NCBI GenBank assembly: GCA_964577255.1
Contig: CAZNYM010000004.1
Coordinates: 804 to 64,803 of the forward strand
Origin: an uncultured Pseudobdellovibrionaceae bacterium
Lineage (GTDB): Bacteria > Pseudomonadota > Alphaproteobacteria > Micavibrionales > Micavibrionaceae
Length of the DNA stretch: 64,000 nt
Reading direction: 5' to 3'
The notes beneath the pieces were generated by a model that did not search any database, had not been told where the DNA came from, and worked only from the letters and a program-made list of their open reading frames with translations. Positions 14,024 to 25,693 of this stretch are shown here, piece after piece; within the stretch, counting starts at the first letter, position 1; the number at the start of each line of letters is the position of its first letter. Position numbers and translations under genes: made by a program.

Positions 14024-14597
14024 GGGCTTCCAGGCGGCTTTGCGTTTCCGGCGCCACCCAGTCGCGCGCTGCGCCTGCCACCTTCTCGCGCATGTTCATA
14101 GCAGGATCGATGATGATGGTCTCCGGCAGGCGCAGCGTGTGAAACACATCCTGGACGATGTCCTTGCCGGGATCATGCAGTACGATGAAGTTGTCAAGCC
14201 CGCGCGCCGCGCGGCCGTAACGGTTCATGAAGCGCTCGATCGCCGCCTTGTCGGCGTCGACCGATACGGCCAGTACGGCAAGCCGTTTGCCCATGCGCTG
14301 CGCCAGCGCGGTCTTGGCCGGAAAATCGGCGATGCAGGGCGCGCACCAGCTGGCCCAGAAATAAAGCAGCACCACCCGACCCCTGAAATCATGGAGCGCC
14401 ACGTTCCTGCCTTCGGGGGTTTTAAAAACCACGGCGGGGGCGGGCGTACTGGCAGCGGCTGGTTCATTATGCGTCGGCGCGGAAGGGGTGGGGCCGTTCC
14501 GGCCTGCGTGATTGTCCGCGTAATAGGTCGCGAGCGTCAGGCCTGCCAGCACCGCGCCGATCAGAAGCGTGTTGAGGATTTTAGCGGACATTTTCAC
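14007..14597 (-). CDS. Membrane-anchored thioredoxin-like thiol:disulfide oxidoreductase (TlpA/ResA family)
   Basis: 196 aa. N-terminal TM helix and FWASWCAPC active site. The track start at 14597 is GTG; an ATG lies at 14591. Overlaps the 3' end of ccsBA by 17 nt. Confidence 0.85.
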   Translation of the reverse strand: MKMSAKILNTLLIGAVLAGLTLATYYADNHAGRNGPTPSAPTHNEPAAASTPAPAVVFKTPEGRNVALHDFRGRVVLLYFWASWCAPCIADFPAKTALAQRMGKRLAVLAVSVDADKAAIERFMNRYGRAARGLDNFIVLHDPGKDIVQDVFHTLRLPETIIIDPAMNMREKVAGAARDWVAPETQSRLEALIPAP

Positions 14598-17538
14598 AGC
14601 GGCGCGCCCCCAGCCACAACCCGGCGATCAGAACGGCTTCAAGCAGGCAGAACGCCGCCAGCCCGGCGGCGATGCCCTCCGTGAAACCGTAGGAATGAAG
14701 CCCAACATTGAGAAGATTGACTCCGAACCACGACAGCGCCACGACGATGTTGAGCGCGGCCAGAACGGCCAAAGCCGGCACGGGCGCGATCATGCCACTT
14801 ACGCGCCCATGTAGAAGCCACACCAGCCACAGGACGATCAGAAGCGCGCCGTTTTCCTTCGGGTCCCAGCCCCAGAAGCGCCCCCACGACTGATCGGCCC
14901 AGATGCCGCCTAGGATGGTACCGGTGGCCGCGAAGAAAAGCGCCCACAGGGCGGCGGGCATTGTTCCGGCAAGCGACGGCGTCCGGCCGCGGCAGGCGCG
15001 CGCCAGATGAAGGTGCGCAAGGCACGCCGCCAACACGGCAAAGGCATAACCTGCCGTGATGAAAAGCACATGTGTGCTCAGCCAGAATCCGGTGTTCAGA
15101 ACCGCCGTCAGCATGACCATCGTGTCGCCCTGCACCTGCGCGAAATAGGCGGACAGAAGCAAAAGCGCCGCACCCGTGAACCCGCTTATAGCCAGCAGCG
15201 CGGGATTTTTGCGTGCCCAGCCCATGCCGAACGCCGCGCCCGCGCACAGAAAAGAGACAAACAGGATCGATTCGTAAAGCGTGCCCACAGGCGGCCGCGC
15301 CAGGATGACAATGCGCATCAGCAGCAGCGCGCTGTGCACGGCCAGGGCGGCGACGCCCGCCGCGATCATCGCCGCAAGCGCGGCGCGGCGCCGGCGTTGG
15401 GGCACAAAAGCGTATCCCGCCGCCGCAACCAGCAGGACTATATATAGTGTGAAAGCGGCTTCCGCCGGATGCCGGCGGTGATACAAATCTTCAAGCGCCA
15501 GGCGCCACGCCGCGCTTGCACCCAGCGATTCCCCAGCCCTGATCGCCGCCACATGCCGGTCCCAGCCCTGCGCGTCGCTGTTTGCCCAGGCGGCGGCCAG
15601 CCCGGCCCATTCCTGCAGCAGCGCGGCGCTGCCCGGCCCGCCGCGCCCCTGCAGCAGGGCATCCCACGGCGCCAGCCATTCCTCGCCCTGTGCACCTTCG
15701 TGCCATTGCGGCGGCAGGATGCGCAAAAGCGTGTTGTCCGCGCCGCCCGCGCGCAGCATCTGCATCTGCCAGCCGAGCGCCGCCAGTTTTTTCTCCGCAG
15801 CGCTGTAGCGTTCTATATTTTCGCCTTTGCGGCGGATCAGGTTCTGCAGCCGGCGATCGATTTCTTCGCGGTGTTTTTCCAGCGCCAGATAGCTCGGAGC
15901 CGCGCCGCCGCCGTCCCACGGCGCGGGAACATCCACCGCCAGTGGCAAGATCAGTGAGAAGCTGCGCAGAAGCTGCAGGTAAAGCGCCACGTTGTCGCGC
16001 AGCAGGATCAGGTCGCGCTCGGTCTGGTTAAGCGCGGCTGCGGGCTTACCGGCAAGCGTTTCCAGGAGCACGTTTTTCTGCGCGAGCGCCGAGCTTGTTT
16101 CACCCAGCGTGTAAAGCCTGTCCTTGCGTTCGGGCAGGGCCAGAAGTGCACGCAGCGCGGGCGAGGGCACGCGCAGCACCCGGTTCTCGGCCGCGACCGC
16201 CGGATCGAACAGGCTTTGCGCCAGCCAGGCGACGGCCGGCTGCCCCTCGAAGCGTTCGCTGCCCGAAAGCTGGCGCAGGGTGGCGGCGGCGAAAGCGCCC
16301 AGCGGCTTCAGGCGACCCTGATCCTGAATCGCGAGGCGGGAGAATTCCGTCATCGGCAACGATTCCGCGCGCGCGGCGGCTGGCGTCAGCATCGCACCCG
16401 CCAGAAGAAGCGCAAGAGCGGCCGCGCGCACACGCACGCGCATAAGAATATGCAGCAGGAGCCCGGCGGCGATCAGGGCACTCGCGGCGTAAGGGAATAG
16501 CCGGCCGCTGTTGCGCACCACGCTCAGCACCGTTGCTTCGCCGGCTTCGGTGGCGATGTAAGAGGATTGATAGAAAGTATACCCGCGATAGCGCAGCGGT
16601 TCGTTCATGCCGATCTCGACCGGCCAGGAGGCGTCGCCGTCGGTGATGACGAGCGCGGCGCGGTAAGCGCGCGCCGTCTGCGTGCCCGGGTGCAGGTCGC
16701 GGGTAATGTCGGTGAGCGCGAGGCTGAAGGGCAGGCGCGTCTCCGCCCGGGCGAAGGAGAGGGTGTAGGTGTCACCGCTGTGCACGATCTCCGGCCGGTG
16801 CGGCATCAGTTCGGTGAGTAGGTAGCCGCCGTCCTGCTCCGCGCCGGCGCCGCGCGCCAGCAGGGTCAGTCCGGCGTGATTGTTTTCATCCTGCTTGTCG
16901 GCGGGGCGCGGCGCCAGCCTTACCTTGGCGGCGGGCCCGTGCCAGGGCAATCCTTCGGGCGCGCTGTCGCGATCCTGCGGCAGCGGCTCGTTGTTGAGGG
17001 CGTAGTGCAGGATTGTCAGGGAGAAAGGCAGAGTTCCCGCGCCTATCGTCATCCCGTCGCGCAGGGCGGTATGCGGCAGGGTCAGGATCGTTTCGCCGTT
17101 GCGCGCTACGGTCAAAACGCGGCTGTGATAATCCTCGACCGCGCTGCGGCTTTCTCCCTCGGGGATGAGCATATAGCCCTCTTTTTGCGTCAGTGCCGTG
17201 AGCAATCCGCCGCACAGCAGCACCAGAACCCCGGCATGGACGACGATGGTGCCTGCGCGCGCGCGCGACCACGCGCTTTTGAATATAAGCTTGGTGAAAA
17301 GCGCCAGGGCGATCAGCGCCGTCACCGGATACAGCCCCGGCAGGGGCAGGGGACCAAGCCATATCACCCACGAGGAAAAGAACAGCCGCGTGGCGGCATA
17401 CAGTCCCATCTCCTTCTGCGCCACCGTGCCGGCGGCCAGCAGCAGCATCAGGTAGGGAAGCGCGAAGAAAACGATTTTCGGATCGGCAAGGCGGTCAATC
17501 AGGCGCGACCAAAAGGGGGCAGGGGCATCGGAGTTCAT
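14581..17538 (-). CDS. ccsBA: Fused system II cytochrome c synthase (ResB/CcsB-like N-terminus plus CcsA/ResC-like C-terminus)
   Basis: 985 aa. N-terminal ResB-like part ends MNEPLRYRGYTFYQSSY. The C-terminal polytopic part carries the tryptophan-rich WGRFWGWDPKENGALLIVLW (WWD) haem-handling motif. A Leu/Ala-rich segment of ~320 aa lies between them. Confidence 0.85.
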   Translation of the reverse strand: MNSDAPAPFWSRLIDRLADPKIVFFALPYLMLLLAAGTVAQKEMGLYAATRLFFSSWVIWLGPLPLPGLYPVTALIALALFTKLIFKSAWSRARAGTIVVHAGVLVLLCGGLLTALTQKEGYMLIPEGESRSAVEDYHSRVLTVARNGETILTLPHTALRDGMTIGAGTLPFSLTILHYALNNEPLPQDRDSAPEGLPWHGPAAKVRLAPRPADKQDENNHAGLTLLARGAGAEQDGGYLLTELMPHRPEIVHSGDTYTLSFARAETRLPFSLALTDITRDLHPGTQTARAYRAALVITDGDASWPVEIGMNEPLRYRGYTFYQSSYIATEAGEATVLSVVRNSGRLFPYAASALIAAGLLLHILMRVRVRAAALALLLAGAMLTPAAARAESLPMTEFSRLAIQDQGRLKPLGAFAAATLRQLSGSERFEGQPAVAWLAQSLFDPAVAAENRVLRVPSPALRALLALPERKDRLYTLGETSSALAQKNVLLETLAGKPAAALNQTERDLILLRDNVALYLQLLRSFSLILPLAVDVPAPWDGGGAAPSYLALEKHREEIDRRLQNLIRRKGENIERYSAAEKKLAALGWQMQMLRAGGADNTLLRILPPQWHEGAQGEEWLAPWDALLQGRGGPGSAALLQEWAGLAAAWANSDAQGWDRHVAAIRAGESLGASAAWRLALEDLYHRRHPAEAAFTLYIVLLVAAAGYAFVPQRRRRAALAAMIAAGVAALAVHSALLLMRIVILARPPVGTLYESILFVSFLCAGAAFGMGWARKNPALLAISGFTGAALLLLSAYFAQVQGDTMVMLTAVLNTGFWLSTHVLFITAGYAFAVLAACLAHLHLARACRGRTPSLAGTMPAALWALFFAATGTILGGIWADQSWGRFWGWDPKENGALLIVLWLVWLLHGRVSGMIAPVPALAVLAALNIVVALSWFGVNLLNVGLHSYGFTEGIAAGLAAFCLLEAVLIAGLWLGARRCENVR

Positions 17539-18639: not shown

Positions 18640-18667
18640 TTGACATAAGCCCAACAGCGCCATAATC
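18640..18667 (+). promoter_or_regulatory. Putative sigma-70-type promoter of the CdnL-like chimera gene
   Basis: TTGACA (18640-18645), 16-nt spacer, ATAATC (18662-18667). AGGGAG SD lies before ATG 18714. Motif match only. Confidence 0.3.
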
Positions 18668-18713
18668 GTAATCTGGCTTTTTATATATAAAACAACTCTA
18701 CAGGGAGCAAGCC

Positions 18714-21017
18714 ATGACCGATATGGCCGAACAGGATGTTTTGAATCAGCCGCGGCTGCGGGTCGGGCAATATCTGGTCTATCCCGGCCAGGGACTGTCG
18801 GTGATCAGCGCCCGCCGGCTCTATCACGTGGACAAGATAAAGACGGTTATGCTCGAGGCCCGACCGCTCCACGATCTGCAGACCTTGTCCGCCATCGCCG
18901 AAGAACTGGCGGGAGACCGAGGCCTGCGGCCACCGTCTTCACACGAAGACATAAAGGCGGCGCTGGAAAAGATCGCCCAGGCGCCGGGTTATCCTGGCAA
19001 GGGTGAGCGCCGCCGTCCCTCCAACGATTACAAACCGCAGTTCGCATCGGGCAGGCTTGAGGATCTCGTTACCGTGTTGTGTGATTTGGCCCGGAGCTAT
19101 AAAGGCCGGGTGCAGGGAATGGATAACATCCCCCCGCTTGACCGGCGCGACGCGCAGCGGGCAATAAAGCTGCTGGCCGTTGAAATGGCGTTCGATACAG
19201 GCCTGACTATCGATAAATGCGAGAAGCATATCGACAAGTTGCTGTTTGGCAGGATCAAGAACGGAGACAAGAAAGACGATTATTTCTGGCCGAAAAAAAC
19301 ACGAAAGCGGCATCCTCCGGTCATGGACCGCGAAGAATTTCATGCGCTTTTTCACCAGTATCCGGAGCAAGAAGAGCAGGCCGCGCCCAAGGTGTTTTCC
19401 GCTCTTCGCGAAATTTATGAACCAAGGCGCCGGTTTGGCAGGACGTCAGGCGGAGATGCGCGGGAAGATGCCGGTGGCAGCGACAGCGCGGACACTGAAG
19501 GAGAAGACGAGAAAAAGACAGCCGCGCCTTCCAAAAGTAAGATTATATTGTCGAAGCGCGGCAGATCCGCGCGCGCAGCAGAAGCAGAGGCGCCAGCCCC
19601 GCGGCGGAACGAAGATCGTCAGGAAACACCTCAAAAAAATGGCGGCCGTCCCGATGATAAAGATGTCCATGAAATCATGTGCCGCGAATTGTCGATGAAA
19701 TGCGGACGGGGGTGCATGAGTAACATTTTTCGCGCGGCGGTCGAAGTTCTGGACGCGCCGGCGCTTGATGTGTATACGCGCCTGGAAACACGCCGCCCGG
19801 AATTTCGCCAAACGCTGGCGCAGGTGGCCGAGGACCTCGGCAAGATGCCCCAGGAGGTGATCGCGATGCGCAATGAGGCTGTCCACGCCATGCGCGCGCA
19901 CCTGTGCAAGGGCAACCGGGCTGATTTCTACCGCAATATGCGGTGTCTCGCACTTTGGGCGGCGGACGATGAGGGGCGGGGAGCGCAAGAAGCCGGTGAA
20001 ATTATTAGCGCGTCCCGTAAGAAGATCAAGAAAGAGCTCTTGTCGTCTACGGGCGATATGATCGCCCCTCTGTATAAGCGAGAACGGGATCTGGTGCCGG
20101 CGCGGGGACCGGTGCGCGGCTTGTTTCTGCGCGCCGTTAAGGCGCTTTCGGCGGAGAAGTTCGATGTTTATACGCGCCTGGAAACGCGCACGCCGGCGCA
20201 TCGCGAGACGTTGGCGCAGGTCGCCGACTCTCTTGGCAAATCCGAAGATGAGGTACGTCGCATCCGCAATGAAGCGGTGAGAACACTGCGCCAGGATTTT
20301 ATCGTGTGCGGCGACAAGATACCGCACATGGCGGCCATCGAGCTCATGCTGAATGGCGAGGACACGCCTCCGGATTCGCCAGCGGCGGCTATGGATGATC
20401 CTGTTAGTAAAGAAGGTGCCGAAGAATTTCAGGCGGAGAGAGAGGGCGTTCCTCTGGCCGCGTTGGCGGCTGTTGCAGCAGTGGATGATCCTGCAGGCGG
20501 GGAGGAAGCCGTGCCGCCGGAAGAAGAACCGGCTCTGGACGAGGATATGCGCGTCCTTTACGAGCGGGAGCGTGCGCTTGCGGTATCTGAAGGGCCGCTT
20601 AAGGGCTTTCTCAATCTTGCCGCCGGCCTGCTCACGCCCGAAGAGTTCGATGTGTATGCCCGCATGGAAATCCGCCGCCCCGAATGCCGCGAAACGCCGG
20701 CGCAGATCGCTCGGGTTCTGGGTAAATCCGAGGACGAGGTGCGTCTTATCCGCGACGAGGCTGCTTCGCTGATTCGTGACTGGCTGGAAGCCGAAGGCCA
20801 GGAGGCGGCCCTGCTGCCGGCGGTCTTGCCGTTGCCCGCGGAAGATGCGGCATCGGAAGAAGATACTGTCGAGGTCGTGCTGAAGCTTCCGGTCCATCGC
20901 GTGCCGGGTACGCGGCTTTTGATCCAGTTCGACTATGCCACTGACGGCCGGCTGACGGATGCGCGCATCGAGGAACACGCGCCCTCAGCGTTTCCTAAGC
21001 CGGCGGCTCCGGTTTAA
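18714..21017 (+). CDS. CdnL/CarD-like RNA-polymerase-binding module fused to three tandem sigma-70 region-4-like HTH repeats
   Basis: 767 aa. aa 14-178 parallel CdnL ([17 protein letters not shown]; [18 protein letters not shown]; [17 protein letters not shown]; [17 protein letters not shown]). aa ~190-335 are charged low complexity. Three repeats share (F/L)DVYxR(L/M)ExRxPxxRxTxAQ(V/I)AxxLGK(S/M)x(D/Q)EVxx(I/M)RxEA, reminiscent of RpoD region 4.2. Confidence 0.8.
19719..20786 (+). repeat. Three in-frame intragenic repeats (approx. 19719-19904, 20067-20300, 20556-20786) encoding the sigma-region-4-like modules
   Basis: DNA-level similarity is visible, e.g. ttcgatgtttatacgcgcctggaaacgcgcacgccggcgcatcgcgagacgttggcgcaggtcgcc versus cttgatgtgtatacgcgcctggaaacacgccgcccggaatttcgccaaacgctggcgcaggtggcc. 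Confidence 0.8.
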
Positions 21018-22159
21018 GCGGCTTTTCTTGTTGGGCTGCTTGCTGTGCTTTCGATCCACCCGCCGCCGATCAGGCGTTCGCCGTCATAGCACACCGCCGC
21101 CTGGCCTGGGGAAATGCCGTAATGGGGTTCGGCGAGGGTGAGGATGGCGCGGCCGTCCGCGTCGATAGCAAGCGTTCCCGGCACCGGCGCCATGGTCGAA
21201 CGGAACTTCACGAGCACATCGCGCGCTTCGCGCGCCAGCCAGTTGCCGTCCTTAAGATAAAGAATGTCGCGCGCCAGTGCTTCCCTGGGTCCTACGGTGA
21301 CGGTATTTTTTCCCGCATCCACGGCGACGACGTAGAAGGGATTGTTGTCTTCGTTATGCCCGCCGCCGATGCCCAGGCCCCGGCGCTGGCCGATGGTGTA
21401 GTGGATGATGCCTTCGTGCCGGCCCAGCACGCGCCCGTCGACATGGACGATGTCGCCCGCCTCCGCCGCCTGCGGCCGCAGTTTTTTCACCACCTTGGCG
21501 TAATCGCCGCCGGGGACGAAGCAGATATCCTGGCTGTCGGGCTTGTCGGCCGTGATCAGACCGAAGCGCCGCGCATGTTCGCGTGTGACGTCCTTGCCCC
21601 AGCCGCCCAGGGGGAAGCGCATGAAATCAAGCTGCTCCTGCGTGGTGGCGAACAGGAAATAGCTTTGGTCCTTGCCCGGATCGACGGCGCGCAGCAGGTC
21701 GGCGCGCCCGGTGCGCGGGTCGGTGACGCGCTGGATGTAGTGCCCCGTCGCCATGCAGTCGGCGCCCAAATCGCGCGCCACCGCCAGCAGATCGCGGAAC
21801 TTGACGGTCTGATTGCAGCGCACGCAGGGGATCGGCGTTTCACCGCGCAGGTAACTGTCGGCGAAATCCTCGATCACGCTGTCGCGGAAATTGCTTTCGT
21901 AGTTGAGGACGTAGTGCGGGAAGCCACGCGCCTCAGCCACGCGCCGCGCGTCGTAAATATCCTGCCCTGCGCAGCATGCGCCCTTTTTCTGCAGCGCCGC
22001 GCCGTAATCGTAAAGCTGCAGCGTGACGCCGACGACGTCATAGCCCTGCTCGTGCAACAGCGCGGCCACGACCGACGAATCGACCCCGCCCGACATGGCC
22101 ACCACCACGCGGGTATCTTTAGGATCCTTGTTGAAGCCGAGGCTGTTCACAATGGTCAC
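21014..22159 (-). CDS. mnmA: tRNA-specific 2-thiouridylase
   Basis: 381 aa. [15 protein letters not shown]-loop, the CVRCN cysteine and overall MnmA pattern. The start codon at 22159 is GTG. The 3' end overlaps the convergent CdnL-like gene by 4 nt. Confidence 0.92.
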
Positions 22160-23169
22160 TATAAACCAAGACGGACCGCAGAGGAATTTCCGGTTATCGC
22201 GGACTTCCGCGCCGGCTCACCCACTTTCAGGATGCGTTCCAGTTTATGCATAAGATCGGCGTTATAGATCCTGACGGCAAAAGCCGCCGGCCGGTCAAAG
22301 ACTTCACAACCCGCCGCCGCGCGGGCGGCAACGGTATCGGCAATCGTGCCGAAGCGGTCTCCCCAGGCTTTGTAATCTTCCTGCAGATCGGGATACTGAG
22401 AGTGTCTCTCGGCTAAAGAAAGACACTGTCTTTGCATCGTTTCTATGTGTTCGCTCAAAGGCTTGTCATTCAAATCCATGACCCAGTCGAAAGCGCTACC
22501 GGCGCAGGTGCCGGCCAGCGTCAAAAGACCAGCGCAACGCAATTCCTGTTCAACGGTCAAGGTTTGATTTGTGTCATGAATCCTTACGACGCGGTCAAGC
22601 AGTATTCCAACAACGCGCAGGCAGTTCCCCGTGTCATAGGCGCAAGAAATTGTTGACGAACAGCCCTGCAGACTGTTGAGAAAGATACGATCTTCGAAAT
22701 AAGGAATGTCATCAACACTCCCGCTTCCTGCAACAAAGGCCTCAACCGCGCTTTCGATCTTTTTAGAAAAATCGCCGCTTGCTACCGCTTGGGGATTTTT
22801 AAGTTCCAATGATGACATGCTCTCGGTTGTCTCGCGAATTTTTTCCCAGCTTTCTTCAGGCTGACCCAGCTTATAGGCGGCCATGTACAGATTTCTCATG
22901 GGGAGAAGCTCAGGGCTGCCTGCTACATCGGCCAGAAAAAACTTAGTTTCAAAAATTCCGAATGTCTCAAAAGCGGCGTGAAACTCCTCCGCCGGCGCAG
23001 TGCTCACTTTCATCAGATCGCCCAGGATTCTCATGCGCCTGGTTTCACACGCGCCGTCCATGAAATCCTGCGTCAGCGGGCTGCGGTCGTCGGTTTTCAG
23101 CAGCGAAATAAAATCTTCTCTGGTGGCGATATGCAGGGCGATTATTTTCTCAATATGTTGTCTGTTCAT
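22159..23169 (-). CDS. Hypothetical protein, paralog A (336 aa, nine Cys)
   Basis: No family recognised. Full-length similarity by eye to the upstream gene ([26 protein letters not shown] versus LLYAVIKLGSPEMTWDDIVAEHDSLS; PYFEDRIFL versus PFRDDGIDL; N-terminus [12 protein letters not shown] versus RHVTYVKTMIARHIT). The stop overlaps the mnmA GTG by 1 nt. Two sampled 60-nt lines are ~45-47% G+C. Confidence 0.6.
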
Positions 23170-24119
23170 GGTATCTCCGGTTTACGCAGGTGAAGGGCGG
23201 GCAGGCGCGGCCCGCCGGGCAATGTGGCGGCGACCTTACGCTGGGCGCGCTCGAAATTGATCATGTGCCCGGCAGTTTCGGGATCGGCAAGGATGTTGAC
23301 GATGAAAGGATCCTTTTGTTCCTGAAAGCGCGCGCACAGATTTCTGAGTTGTTCCGCTTCCTTTTCCCCGCCGACCTGGGTCTGCAGGTGCAAAAGCCGG
23401 GCGGCGGCGGCCGTGCCCACCGCCATCATGTCTTTATAATGCCTGCGGCTTGAAAGATCGTCGGCCAGCAGAGCCTTGAACATGGTCATCAGGCAGGACA
23501 GGCGCATCCGCTCGCTTTCATCGGGAGGCTCCGCCTGGCCGGCGCGGTCGAGCACATGTGCGGCGATGGTTGCCCAGCGCTCCGCCCGGCCCTGCGCGGG
23601 CAAATCGCAGTTAAAAATCTGGTCCGCGGCAAACAAGTCGATGCCGTCGTCACGAAAAGGCAACCCCGCAGGATCGAACACGGGCTCGTCGAACAGCGCC
23701 GCGGTCAGGCGATCCACGTAAGGTCCGCCGATCAGCTCATGGGGGTTGGCACGGGCATGAACACTCAGGGAGTCGTGCTCGGCCACGATGTCATCCCACG
23801 TCATCTCGGGCGAACCCAGTTTGATGACGGCGTAAAGCAGGGGTATGTTGTCGGCCAGATCCTCTTCGCCGCGCAGAGTATAAAGATGGGAAAGACAAAC
23901 ATGCGGTCCCCAGAAGGCCAGCCCCTCATAAATATCGTCGGTGTCTATGTTGTTGAGGCGGTTGAGGTCTTCGAGCATGTTCTCGCGCTGACGCAGGATC
24001 AGGCCGTTCCCAGTGCCGGGCAAGACTTGATCTTCGCGCAGGCGCTGACCCAGCGTACCCATCGCCGTGATGTGGCGCGCGATCATGGTTTTGACGTAGG
24101 TAACGTGCCGGGCGGACAT
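23166..24119 (-). CDS. Hypothetical protein, paralog B (317 aa from ATG 24119)
   Basis: The track start at 24134 is TTG. ATG 24119 is preceded by AGGAGAAACCC. The stop overlaps the start of paralog A (ATGA). No family recognised. Confidence 0.6.
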   Translation of the reverse strand: MSARHVTYVKTMIARHITAMGTLGQRLREDQVLPGTGNGLILRQRENMLEDLNRLNNIDTDDIYEGLAFWGPHVCLSHLYTLRGEEDLADNIPLLYAVIKLGSPEMTWDDIVAEHDSLSVHARANPHELIGGPYVDRLTAALFDEPVFDPAGLPFRDDGIDLFAADQIFNCDLPAQGRAERWATIAAHVLDRAGQAEPPDESERMRLSCLMTMFKALLADDLSSRRHYKDMMAVGTAAAARLLHLQTQVGGEKEAEQLRNLCARFQEQKDPFIVNILADPETAGHMINFERAQRKVAATLPGGPRLPALHLRKPEIP

Positions 24120-24183
24120 GGGTTTCTCCTGCAAGCCGCGACTATAGGGAAGGGGAGCCGCTAAAGCAATAATTTTTACATAA

Positions 24184-24580: not shown

Positions 24581-25693
24581 TTATCTGCGCACGCGGTCAA
24601 TCACTTTTTTGAAGGCCGCGGCAGCGGCCGTGATGTCGCCGGGCCGCGTGTCCCAGCCCAGGGAAAAACGCAGCGCCCCCGCGCTCAAAGCGGGGTCGAC
24701 CCCCATGGCCGCCAGGACATGCGAGGGTTTGACCGTGCCGCTCGAACATGCCGATCCGCTCGATACCGCCAGCCCCTCAAGATCGAGCGCCATCAGAAAC
24801 GTTTGGGCATTGGCGCCGGGCACGCCGATATTGAGCGTGTTGGCCACACGCGGCGCCTGCGCGCCGAAGACGACTGTGTCAGGTGCGATCTCCTGCAGCG
24901 ATTTTTCCAGCTGGTCGCGCAGCTTCACAAGGTCGCGGAAGGTTTCAAGATGCGAGAGAGCATAGGCGGCCGCCGCGCCGAACCCGGCGATGCCGGCTAC
25001 ATTTTCCGTGCCGGCGCGCTGGCGCTTTTCCTGGCCGCCGCCGTGCAGAAGGCGCGGCACCGGCGCGCCCGGCGCGCTGAGGAGGGCGCCCGTGCCCTGC
25101 GGTCCGCCGATCTTATGAGAGGAAAGGCTCAGATAATCGGCATAGAGCGCCGCCATCTCAAGCGGCATCCTTCCGGCCGCCTGCACGGCATCTGTATGGA
25201 TGAATACGCCGGGATGATGTTTCTTCGCCAGACGCGCCAGTTCCGCCACCGGCTGGATCACGCCGGTTTCGTTGTTCACCAGCATGACCGAGACAAGCGC
25301 GGGTGGGGCGCTCGCCTGCAGCATCTTTTCAAACGCGGCCATGTCGACCACGCCCGCCTGTGTGACGGGGATGCGTTCGGCGTCGGGCGCCGATTCCAGC
25401 ACCGAAGGATGCTCGATCGCCGACACCAGAATCCGCTGTCCGGCGAAATGCTTGAGCACTGCGTTGTTCGATTCCGTGGCGCCGCTTGTGAATGCGACCT
25501 GGTTGGCGTGCGTGCCCGCCAGCGCCGCCACCTGTTCGCGCGCCTGTTCGACGGCCTGGCGCGCGTGGCGCCCGAATCCATGAATCGACGAGGCGTTGCC
25601 CGGCTGCGCCAGCGTTGCTTGCATCACTGCAAGTGCTTGCGGCAGAAGCGGCGCCGAGGCGTTGTAATCGAGATAAATCGCTTCTTTTTTCAT
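24581..25693 (-). CDS. Cysteine desulfurase (NifS/IscS-like class V aminotransferase)
   Basis: 370 aa. YLDYNASAP N-terminus, SSHKIGGPQGTGAL PLP-lysine motif and SGSACSSG active-site cysteine loop. Confidence 0.88.
   Translation of the reverse strand: MKKEAIYLDYNASAPLLPQALAVMQATLAQPGNASSIHGFGRHARQAVEQAREQVAALAGTHANQVAFTSGATESNNAVLKHFAGQRILVSAIEHPSVLESAPDAERIPVTQAGVVDMAAFEKMLQASAPPALVSVMLVNNETGVIQPVAELARLAKKHHPGVFIHTDAVQAAGRMPLEMAALYADYLSLSSHKIGGPQGTGALLSAPGAPVPRLLHGGGQEKRQRAGTENVAGIAGFGAAAAYALSHLETFRDLVKLRDQLEKSLQEIAPDTVVFGAQAPRVANTLNIGVPGANAQTFLMALDLEGLAVSSGSACSSGTVKPSHVLAAMGVDPALSAGALRFSLGWDTRPGDITAAAAAFKKVIDRVRR

Follow-up and report, generated by a model that had tools for sequence, protein, structure and literature searches.

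A CdnL/CarD-like module followed by tandem sigma-70 region-4-like repeats in a protein of a Micavibrio-like bacterium

CarD/CdnL proteins are general bacterial transcription-initiation factors, which are often essential. The canonical CdnL is a stand-alone stabilizer of the open complex with ~160-200 amino acids (aa), and the CarD/CdnL chains in the PDB are 158-170 aa long. To our knowledge, the only well-studied elaboration of CdnL so far is CarD of Myxococcus with its eukaryote-like HMGA AT-hooks. In the general stress response of Alphaproteobacteria, PhyR contains a sigma-like domain that mimics EcfG and thus acts as a decoy which captures NepR, an anti-sigma factor. The subject of this work is a gene for a 767-aa protein in a stretch of 64,000 nucleotides (nt) from an uncultured Pseudobdellovibrionaceae bacterium (GCA_964577255.1, contig CAZNYM010000004.1, positions 804 to 64,803 of the forward strand). 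This whole stretch is referred to as the window, and all coordinates are given in its numbering. The protein carries a CdnL-like N-terminal module, a charged linker and three repeats that resemble region 4 of sigma-70 (Table 1). The elaboration known from Myxococcus xanthus is of another kind, as CarD, the partner of CarG in a global regulator, combines a CdnL-like binder of RNA polymerase (RNAP) with an HMGA-like DNA-binding tail (PMC4374960, PMC4182748). It has an acidic region and AT-hooks of the HMGA type, and orthologs with histone-H1-like tails are described (PMC4374960).

Domain architecture of the protein and its family

According to structure prediction, residues ~12-180 are certain to form a complete two-domain CarD/CdnL fold, i.e., a Tudor-like RNAP-interaction domain (RID) followed by a helical CarD_C-type domain. 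It is the family profile together with structure prediction that makes this likeness highly significant; the single sequence by itself does not. With the window protein alone, none of the Pfam CarD families was matched above threshold, and phmmer with aa 1-200 against the PDB aligned aa 13-173 to residues 6-160 of M. xanthus CdnL (2lwj) at E=0.75. In contrast, a profile of 25 N-terminal regions of the family matched 2lwj with E=2.5e-26 (residues 6-163), the CarD proteins of Streptomyces, Mycobacterium and Thermus with 5e-18 to 1.5e-14, and the N-terminal domain structures 2lt4 (CdnL) and 2lt1 (M. xanthus CarD) with ~1e-10. When the members were scanned singly, 20 of the 25 matched CarD_C (PF21095) and ten matched CarD_TRCF_RID (PF02559), the window member neither of them. 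The AlphaFold2 (AF2) model of aa 1-237, computed from 24 aligned sequences, has a predicted local distance difference test score (pLDDT) of 87 and a predicted template modeling score (pTM) of 0.81. It contains the RID strands E19-23, E27-39, E42-51 and E59-62 (pLDDT >90) and, in the CarD_C-type domain, the helices H77-88, H107-129, H141-162 and H166-178. In a Foldseek search with this model, the ten top PDB matches were all CarD/CdnL (E 3e-8 to 6e-4), headed by Thermus CarD 4l5g (E=3.3e-8), and the RID matched the isolated RID structures 2lt1, 2lqk and 9e88_M besides CarD/CdnL. The best template modeling (TM) score, 0.79, was reached against RNAP-bound CarD in open complexes (6edt_M, 8hvr_H). 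All ten matches are full-length CarD/CdnL chains; eight of them gave target TM-scores of 0.56-0.79, and the domain-shifted CarD structures 4kbm_B and 4mfr of Mycobacterium tuberculosis (Mtb) gave 0.52 and 0.39, respectively. A first-pass annotation of the sequence had proposed a CdnL/CarD likeness through both domains; the N-terminal strings it quoted are present, and the assignment is borne out by the family profile and by AF2 with Foldseek. Fold and family profile both assign the protein to the CarD_CdnL_TRCF superfamily. Its size and its added modules set it apart from a canonical CdnL, and the window copy departs from CdnL at key residues as well.

The second part of the architecture consists of three repeats, whose boundaries and E-values were taken from a hidden Markov model (HMM) of the ~84-aa repeat of the family. 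They are 35-40% identical over ~95 aa, with 27 invariant columns. The first-pass annotation had counted three repeats correctly, but the ranges it gave (19719-19904, 20067-20300, 20556-20786) cover the cores of longer units and not their full extent. In the AF2 model of aa 598-767, repeat 3 is predicted as five helices (H13-25, H31-42, H45-56, H65-72 and H76-96 in model numbering), one being an additional N-terminal helix and four forming the helix-turn-helix (HTH) of sigma-70 region 4. Pfam Sigma70_r4 (PF04545) was found in the whole window protein with 20.5 bits and in repeat 2 with 23.2 bits (E=5e-5), the gathering cut-off being 24.1, and it did not match repeats 1 and 3; the precomputed annotation of the database lists PF04545 for the protein. 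When 68 repeat units of the family were scanned singly, Sigma70_r4 was present in 18 (best E=1.9e-8) and Sigma70_r4_2 in six, and no other Pfam family came near among these units. The repeat profile matched region 4 of RpoH (1.7e-4), RpoS (2e-3) and RpoD (1tty, 1e-2) in the PDB, positions 18-80 aligning with 6-68 of the 1tty chain. The designed repeat proteins (8vd6, dTor) at the top of this search were attributed to the composition or the repetition of short "AEELGIS-EE" helices and discarded as artefacts. By sequence, single window repeats found nothing in the PDB, and a profile of the three repeats gave sigma matches at noise level only. The Foldseek matches of the repeat 3 model in the PDB were almost exclusively sigma region 4, with probabilities up to 0.93 and target TM-scores up to 0.79 (8jzt_C, TM 0.79, root-mean-square deviation 2.8; 3vep_D, TM 0.77; 6ido_A, probability 0.93), and they include sigma-4/beta-flap chimeras, SigK/RslA, SigD/RsdA and SigF. 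These matches, together with the Pfam and PDB profile results, support the view that the repeats are, by predicted fold, HTH modules of the sigma-70 region-4 type, as the first reading of the sequence had suggested. Each of them can be laid without gaps on what we take to be residues ~541-600 of Escherichia coli RpoD (regions 4.1-4.2), which sets the sigma-70 numbering used here. The structural hallmark positions L551, F556, S/T572, A577, G581, V587, I590, A594 and L598 are conserved, and E530, R541, E555, R565, R570, R591 and N/D592 are conserved polar residues specific for the family. NCBIfam TIGR02937 (sigma-70/ECF superfamily) matched with 22.5 bits, below its cut-off of 42.9, at model positions 102-163, i.e., region 4 only. 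A true sigma factor was considered and rejected, as region 2 is absent and Sigma70_r2 has no match in the window protein.

Between these two parts lies a stretch that the first reading had described as a highly charged linker of ~150 aa. This description applies to aa ~226-315, but not to aa 181-225, which are conserved and confidently predicted to be folded: F209 and F213 vary little or not at all in the family alignment, and aa 191-220 have a pLDDT of 88-96. The pattern of the extension (M-x4-F-x3-F-G-x-s-x3-A) recalls the first half of a villin headpiece domain; profile positions 183-207 matched villin headpiece structures at E~0.1, and Pfam VHP was found in three members at 0.021. The linker contains an AT-hook-like KRGRS (RGRS at aa 282-285, 19557-19568), and three relatives have one RGRP AT-hook core each, compared with 0.3 expected by composition. 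These cores are located in charged spacers, at aa ~269 of P0003, ~285 of P0017 and ~420 of an open reading frame (ORF) at locus L013. Five basic members (P0002, P0003, P0009, P0012 and the L013 ORF) show a phi-x-x-F-x-P-Y-x-x-P motif after each repeat, followed by a spacer rich in Lys, Pro and Arg. Because this motif and the spacer follow each repeat, their true period is ~120-130 aa. The hairpin in the C-terminal tail of the window protein is formed by strands E137-144 and E150-158 of the AF2 model with a pLDDT of 73-82. A similar C-terminal pattern can be seen by eye in other members, with HMM support confined to six basic ones. A shared C-terminal beta module of the whole family was therefore dropped, as the HMM recovers only these six and not the window protein.

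An exhaustive phmmer search of 1.84 billion representative proteins returned 27 clusters, counted at 50% identity, at E<=1e-3, with lengths of 345-1710 aa and up to nine matched stretches. In total, 90 repeat units were found in 30 family proteins, with 1-11 units per protein. The common layout is an N-terminal module of ~170 aa, the extension with M-x4-F-x3-F-G, 1-11 repeats of ~84 aa and frequently a short beta element at the C-terminus. With 16-26% identity in the N-terminal module, the window protein diverges most among the members. A word-indexed protein search with the full protein, the N-terminus or the 27-sequence family alignment matched the query only; since the members of that alignment stem from the same collection as was indexed, this empty result is not a proof of absence. 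Back-translated peptide patterns found no relative among the GTDB species representatives, to which the source genome apparently does not belong. A few members are automatically named "CarD family transcriptional regulator" or CarD/CdnL/TRCF with TPR in the source databases, and a literature search found no paper on CdnL fused to sigma-4-like repeats or on CdnL in Micavibrio. The architecture, which the first-pass annotation did not know from elsewhere, is thus rare and apparently uncharacterized, but it is not unique to the window: it defines a small family, some of whose members already bear the label of CarD regulators.

Table 1. Features of the CdnL-family gene and its surroundings (window coordinates).
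Feature	Residues	Coordinates	Strand	Basis and remarks
Candidate sigma-70-type promoter		18640..18667	+	direct reading of the sequence
Shine-Dalgarno GGGAG		18703..18707	+	6 nt 5' of ATG; direct reading of the sequence
CDS (coding sequence) of the long CdnL-family protein, 767 aa		18714..21017 (stop included)	+	ORF list; frame backed by homologs
Tudor-like RID	~12-75	18747..18938	+	AF2, Foldseek, family profile
Helical CarD_C-type domain	~76-180	18939..19253	+	AF2 helices, Pfam in relatives, residue mapping
Family-specific conserved extension	181-225	19254..19388	+	motif W-P...M-x4-F-x3-F-G; alignment and AF2
Charged low-complexity linker	226-315	19389..19658	+	pLDDT 53-56 from aa 221; composition
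Repeat 1	316-399	19659..19910	+	HMM domain E=6e-25; predicted five-helix module with sigma region-4-type HTH
Repeat 2	448-531	20055..20306	+	HMM domain E=3e-28; most sigma-4-like and most basic (net +4)
Strongly acidic linker	532-609	20307..20540	+	net charge -17
Repeat 3	610-693	20541..20792	+	HMM domain E=1e-26; AF2 pLDDT 93-98
Acidic C-terminal tail	694-767	20793..21014	+	beta-hairpin predicted at aa ~734-755
mnmA (tRNA 2-thiouridylase), convergent neighbor		21014..22159	-	Pfam tRNA_Me_trans, E=1e-70

Possible function and competing readings

Judged by analogy, it is most likely that the protein is a CarD-like adaptor anchored on RNAP, whose HTH array would contact either upstream DNA or regulators directed at sigma region 4. 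The first reading had named a promoter tether, a decoy of sigma region 4 and an organizer of RNAP as conceivable roles. We favor a DNA tether, a mechanism that we infer by analogy and regard with slightly less than even confidence. As in the CarD/CdnL structures, the CdnL module would bind the RNAP beta1 lobe in promoter complexes, close to where the transcription bubble ends upstream. From there, long flexible linkers would let the HTH modules reach upstream DNA or proteins, and the array could make multivalent DNA contacts that stabilize or target initiation complexes, in most relatives with the help of the basic Lys/Pro-rich linkers and occasional AT-hooks. DNA is assumed as the target because of the HTH fold, the basic relatives with their Lys/Pro-rich linkers, the RGRP cores, the 1-11 copies and the precedent of M. 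xanthus CarD. The copy number suggests avidity for a polymeric ligand. Such contacts would not be of the -35 type, since the residues with which sigma recognizes the -35 box are exchanged in the repeats.

Several observations weigh against a DNA tether, and the first of them concern its anchor on RNAP. For this purpose the functionally tested positions of M. xanthus CdnL (PMC4182748) were laid onto 25 family members. At F36/M49/P51, the beta-lobe contacts, the window protein has Met/Ala/Ala. The Pro51 equivalent is kept in 21/25 members, the window protein being the only one in the family with Ala, and the F36 and M49 positions vary. At W88, the Trp wedge (W85 in Mtb, W86 in Thermus), 16 members have Trp and the window protein has Arg in the context ERRRPSNDY. 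Its residues at R90/R91/R93, an essential basic stretch of CdnL, are Arg/Pro/Asn, the R91 position being basic in 17/25 members, and those at the basic pair R128/K129 are Arg/Arg, with Arg at R128 in 18/25. In M. xanthus, P51A and R90A/R91A/R93A impair CdnL and W88A is tolerated, and the beta-lobe contacts of CdnL are partly species-specific (PMC4182748). Since the contact residues are substituted and P51A and R90A/R91A/R93A impair the M. xanthus protein, neither RNAP binding nor open-complex stabilization by the window member appears assured. As the contacts are partly species-specific, the altered residues weaken the case for RNAP binding, but they do not disprove it. By residue comparison, the family overall has kept the CdnL hallmarks, and the window copy is its most derived member.

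Further points against a DNA tether come from the modules and from charge. We take E. coli R584, E585, R586, R588 and Q589 to be the -35-contact positions of sigma-70; in the family repeats these are predominantly V/E, E/D, E/D, I and A, and the corresponding residues of window repeat 2 are E, D, E, R and R. The first-pass annotation had spoken of -35- or flap-binding-like modules. The fold stands, but since the contact residues are not conserved, "-35-binding-like" should, as far as the sequence can tell, be read as a description of the fold and not of a demonstrated function. The Foldseek E-values for repeat 3 are weak (0.15-2), as is expected for a 65-residue HTH in a 170-residue query. Moreover, the window protein is acidic with an isoelectric point (pI) of 5.6. 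Net charges are +6 for the CdnL module, +1 for repeat 1 and -5 for repeat 3, and the strongly acidic linker in front of the latter counts in the same direction (Table 1). Most relatives are basic (pI 9-10) with Lys/Pro-rich spacers, whereas the window protein lacks both the F-x-P-Y post-repeat motif and the basic spacers and has acidic spacers instead.

The acidity of the window protein and its linkers would suit another reading, which we regard as possible though rather unlikely. Here the protein is again anchored on RNAP, but its modules would be sigma-4 mimics that form a docking platform, recruiting or sequestering sigma-4-binding factors, such as anti-sigma factors or activators of the OmpR/PhoB/CtrA type, without binding DNA. 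The -35-contact residues have become hydrophobic or acidic and R541, R565, R570, R591 and N592 are conserved, which is consistent with a protein-binding role. In all four loci examined of the TPR-containing subfamily, the gene directly follows, on its own strand, that of a CtrA-like response regulator whose output domain is a winged helix. PhoB-type activators contact region 4 of sigma-70, and the PhoB/sigma-4/flap chimera 3t72 is among the PDB matches of the repeat profile; the PhyR decoy for NepR would be a precedent. However, no partner gene is linked in the subfamily of the window, where the conserved neighbor mnmA is convergent and functionally unrelated, and 1-11 copies with mostly basic linkers fit DNA better than a stoichiometric protein partner. 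As a speculation that we consider unlikely, the whole family might consist of RNAP-anchored sigma-4 mimics, whose tandem modules compete for or multiply sigma-4 surfaces, with flap tips, anti-sigma factors or CtrA/PhoB-type activators as ligands, and in this way cluster polymerases or reprogram promoter choice in the attack-to-growth switch of epibiotic predators.

It appears quite improbable that the protein is a multivalent RNAP organizer, with its CdnL module on the beta lobe and its repeats on the beta-flap tips of the same or of other core enzymes, so that it would be a competitor of sigma region 4 or would tie polymerases together in clusters. The beta-flap tip helix is the natural partner of sigma region 4. 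The best-ranked Foldseek matches include the sigma-4/beta-flap-tip chimeras 7kug, 8d5v, 8cyf and 6ido, and the multivalent architecture with disordered charged linkers would fit, but the packed extra N-terminal helix of the module (H13-25, pLDDT 93-97) may already cover one of its surfaces. Finally, that the window copy is a decaying remnant without CdnL function or specific role, the other members being functional, is very improbable: its divergence, the loss of Pro51 and Trp88, the missing basic linkers and post-repeat motif and the lack of a homolog at the locus of the genomes closest by MnmA (L002, L003) would agree with decay, but the 767-aa ORF is intact and has a Shine-Dalgarno sequence, the family model recognizes each of the three repeats with 1e-25 to 1e-28, both modeled parts fold with high confidence, and the RRR and RR basic clusters of the CarD_C domain are kept.

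The family represents a second, independent elaboration of CdnL in another predatory lineage, built from the part of sigma that serves promoter recognition and activator docking and highly variable in copy number. With DNA-binding modules the protein would be a reader of upstream elements tethered to RNAP, and with protein-binding modules a natural sigma-4 decoy or hub. In both cases it would provide an experimentally tractable handle on transcription rewiring in obligate predators such as Micavibrio. The family also bears on the reuse of sigma region 4 outside sigma factors, and its architecture may stand for a new mode of transcriptional wiring. One subfamily is connected with cell-cycle or developmental control by sharing an operon with a CtrA-like regulator.

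Gene, expression signals and genomic neighborhood

The ORF starts with ATG and is not interrupted over its 767 codons. Its G+C content of 0.605-0.631 is host-like (~0.60 in the window), and the Shine-Dalgarno sequence is well placed, both as described in the first reading. A mobile or foreign origin was dropped, as G+C is host-like, synteny is conserved and nothing speaks in favor of it. For the promoter proposed there, TTGACA/ATAATC, the -35 part is a perfect TTGACA (18640-18645). As -10 element either ATAATC (18662-18667, 16-nt spacer) or CATAAT (18661-18666, 15-nt spacer) comes into question, but a consensus promoter scan did not return this candidate upstream of 18714, so that the promoter is plausible from its sequence but unsupported. 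A canonical short cdnL was found neither in the 64-kb window nor in any of 89 fetched loci.

The stop codons of the CdnL-like gene and of the convergent mnmA share 4 nt (21014-21017), and because of this overlap there is no room for an intergenic terminator; a terminator-like hairpin is found at 21015-21042, within the 3' end of mnmA. MnmA is 79% identical to that of Micavibrio metagenome-assembled genomes, which places the window in a Micavibrio-like lineage. NCBI lists Micavibrio under Bdellovibrionota, and many record titles give Alphaproteobacteria. A family gene lies convergent to mnmA at the loci L046, L013, L041, L038, L081 and L083/84, including the contigs that encode P0006 and P0008, and is separated from mnmA by one gene at L082 and L086 (contigs encoding P0002 and P0007). 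The Micavibrio genomes L002 and L003, the closest ones by MnmA identity, have other genes and no family homolog at the mnmA locus. Since the genes are convergent, the adjacency most likely reflects vertical inheritance and not co-regulation, and a functional tie to mnmA was dropped for the same reason. At L038 (11149-12690, minus strand) the gene convergent to mnmA is a 513-aa variant, in which a long Glu/Lys-rich, coiled-coil-like segment follows the CdnL-like module where the repeats would be expected, and a single degenerate unit may form its end. In its C-terminal half, the gene at this locus is evolutionarily plastic.

On the strand of mnmA and 5' of it, two ORFs of 336 aa (22159-23169, minus strand) and 322 aa (23166-24134, minus strand) without Pfam match lie between it and a class-V aminotransferase gene (cysteine desulfurase-like, 24581-25693). 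The overlapping or abutting stop and start codons of mnmA and these two ORFs suggest one operon. A 985-aa ORF at 14581-17538 (minus strand) encodes a CcsBA-type cytochrome c synthase of system II, in which ResB-like and CcsA-like (Cytochrom_C_asm) parts are fused.

In the TPR-containing subfamily (P0010, P0014, P0024, P0023) the family gene has another neighborhood. At L085 (6735-10796), L087 (6605-10406), L088 (2292-6023) and L089 (3-3868) it follows directly 3', on the same strand, a gene for a response regulator of 451-471 aa, the two genes overlapping by 4 nt at one extreme and lying ~25 nt apart at the other. The N-terminal ~230 aa of this regulator are CtrA-like, with 50-58% identity to a 254-aa CtrA-type ORF at L080, and its C-terminal extension comprises ~230 aa.

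Comparison with known systems

The repeats have the four-helix HTH fold and the structural hallmark positions in common with sigma-70 region 4 (PF04545). They differ from it in the missing conservation of R584, R586, R588 and Q589, in their additional N-terminal helix and in their arrangement as tandem arrays of 1-11. Regions 2 and 3 of sigma-70 factors are absent from the window protein, and the lack of region 2 rules it out as a sigma factor. PhyR resembles it in having a sigma-derived domain inside a non-sigma regulator in an alphaproteobacterial setting, and the sigma-like domain of PhyR serves protein-protein contact instead of promoter recognition. PhyR is different, however, in that it contains sigma-2-like and sigma-4-like parts and a receiver domain, but neither a CdnL module nor tandem repeats.

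With CdnL/CarD of Mycobacterium, Thermus, M. xanthus and Caulobacter the window module shares the two-domain fold of RID and helical CarD_C, and the equivalents of Pro51, Trp88, basic R91 and R128 are kept by most family members. In contrast to the short stand-alone CdnL, the 767-aa protein has three added folded HTH modules, the conserved 45-aa extension and a long charged linker, and Pro51, Trp88 and R91 are replaced in it by Ala, Arg and Pro, respectively.

The closest likeness in design, by analogy, appears to be CarD of M. xanthus, whose architecture is reportedly also treated by García-Heras et al. in 2009. Both proteins come from predatory bacteria, one host being a myxobacterium and the other Micavibrio-like. 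A partner like CarG was not seen, though CarG was not searched for. The N-terminal part of the window protein, unlike that of M. xanthus CarD, holds a full CarD_C domain. The tail of CarD consists of AT-hooks, whereas the C-terminal modules of the window protein are predicted to be folded HTH domains of the sigma-4 type; instead of repeated RGRP AT-hooks the window protein has the single degenerate KRGRS, and the RGRP cores in the spacers of some family members recall the AT-hooks of CarD. Nevertheless, the design logic is the same, with a CarD_CdnL_TRCF module, an acidic or charged spacer and a repetitive C-terminal region, which in CarD is DNA-binding.

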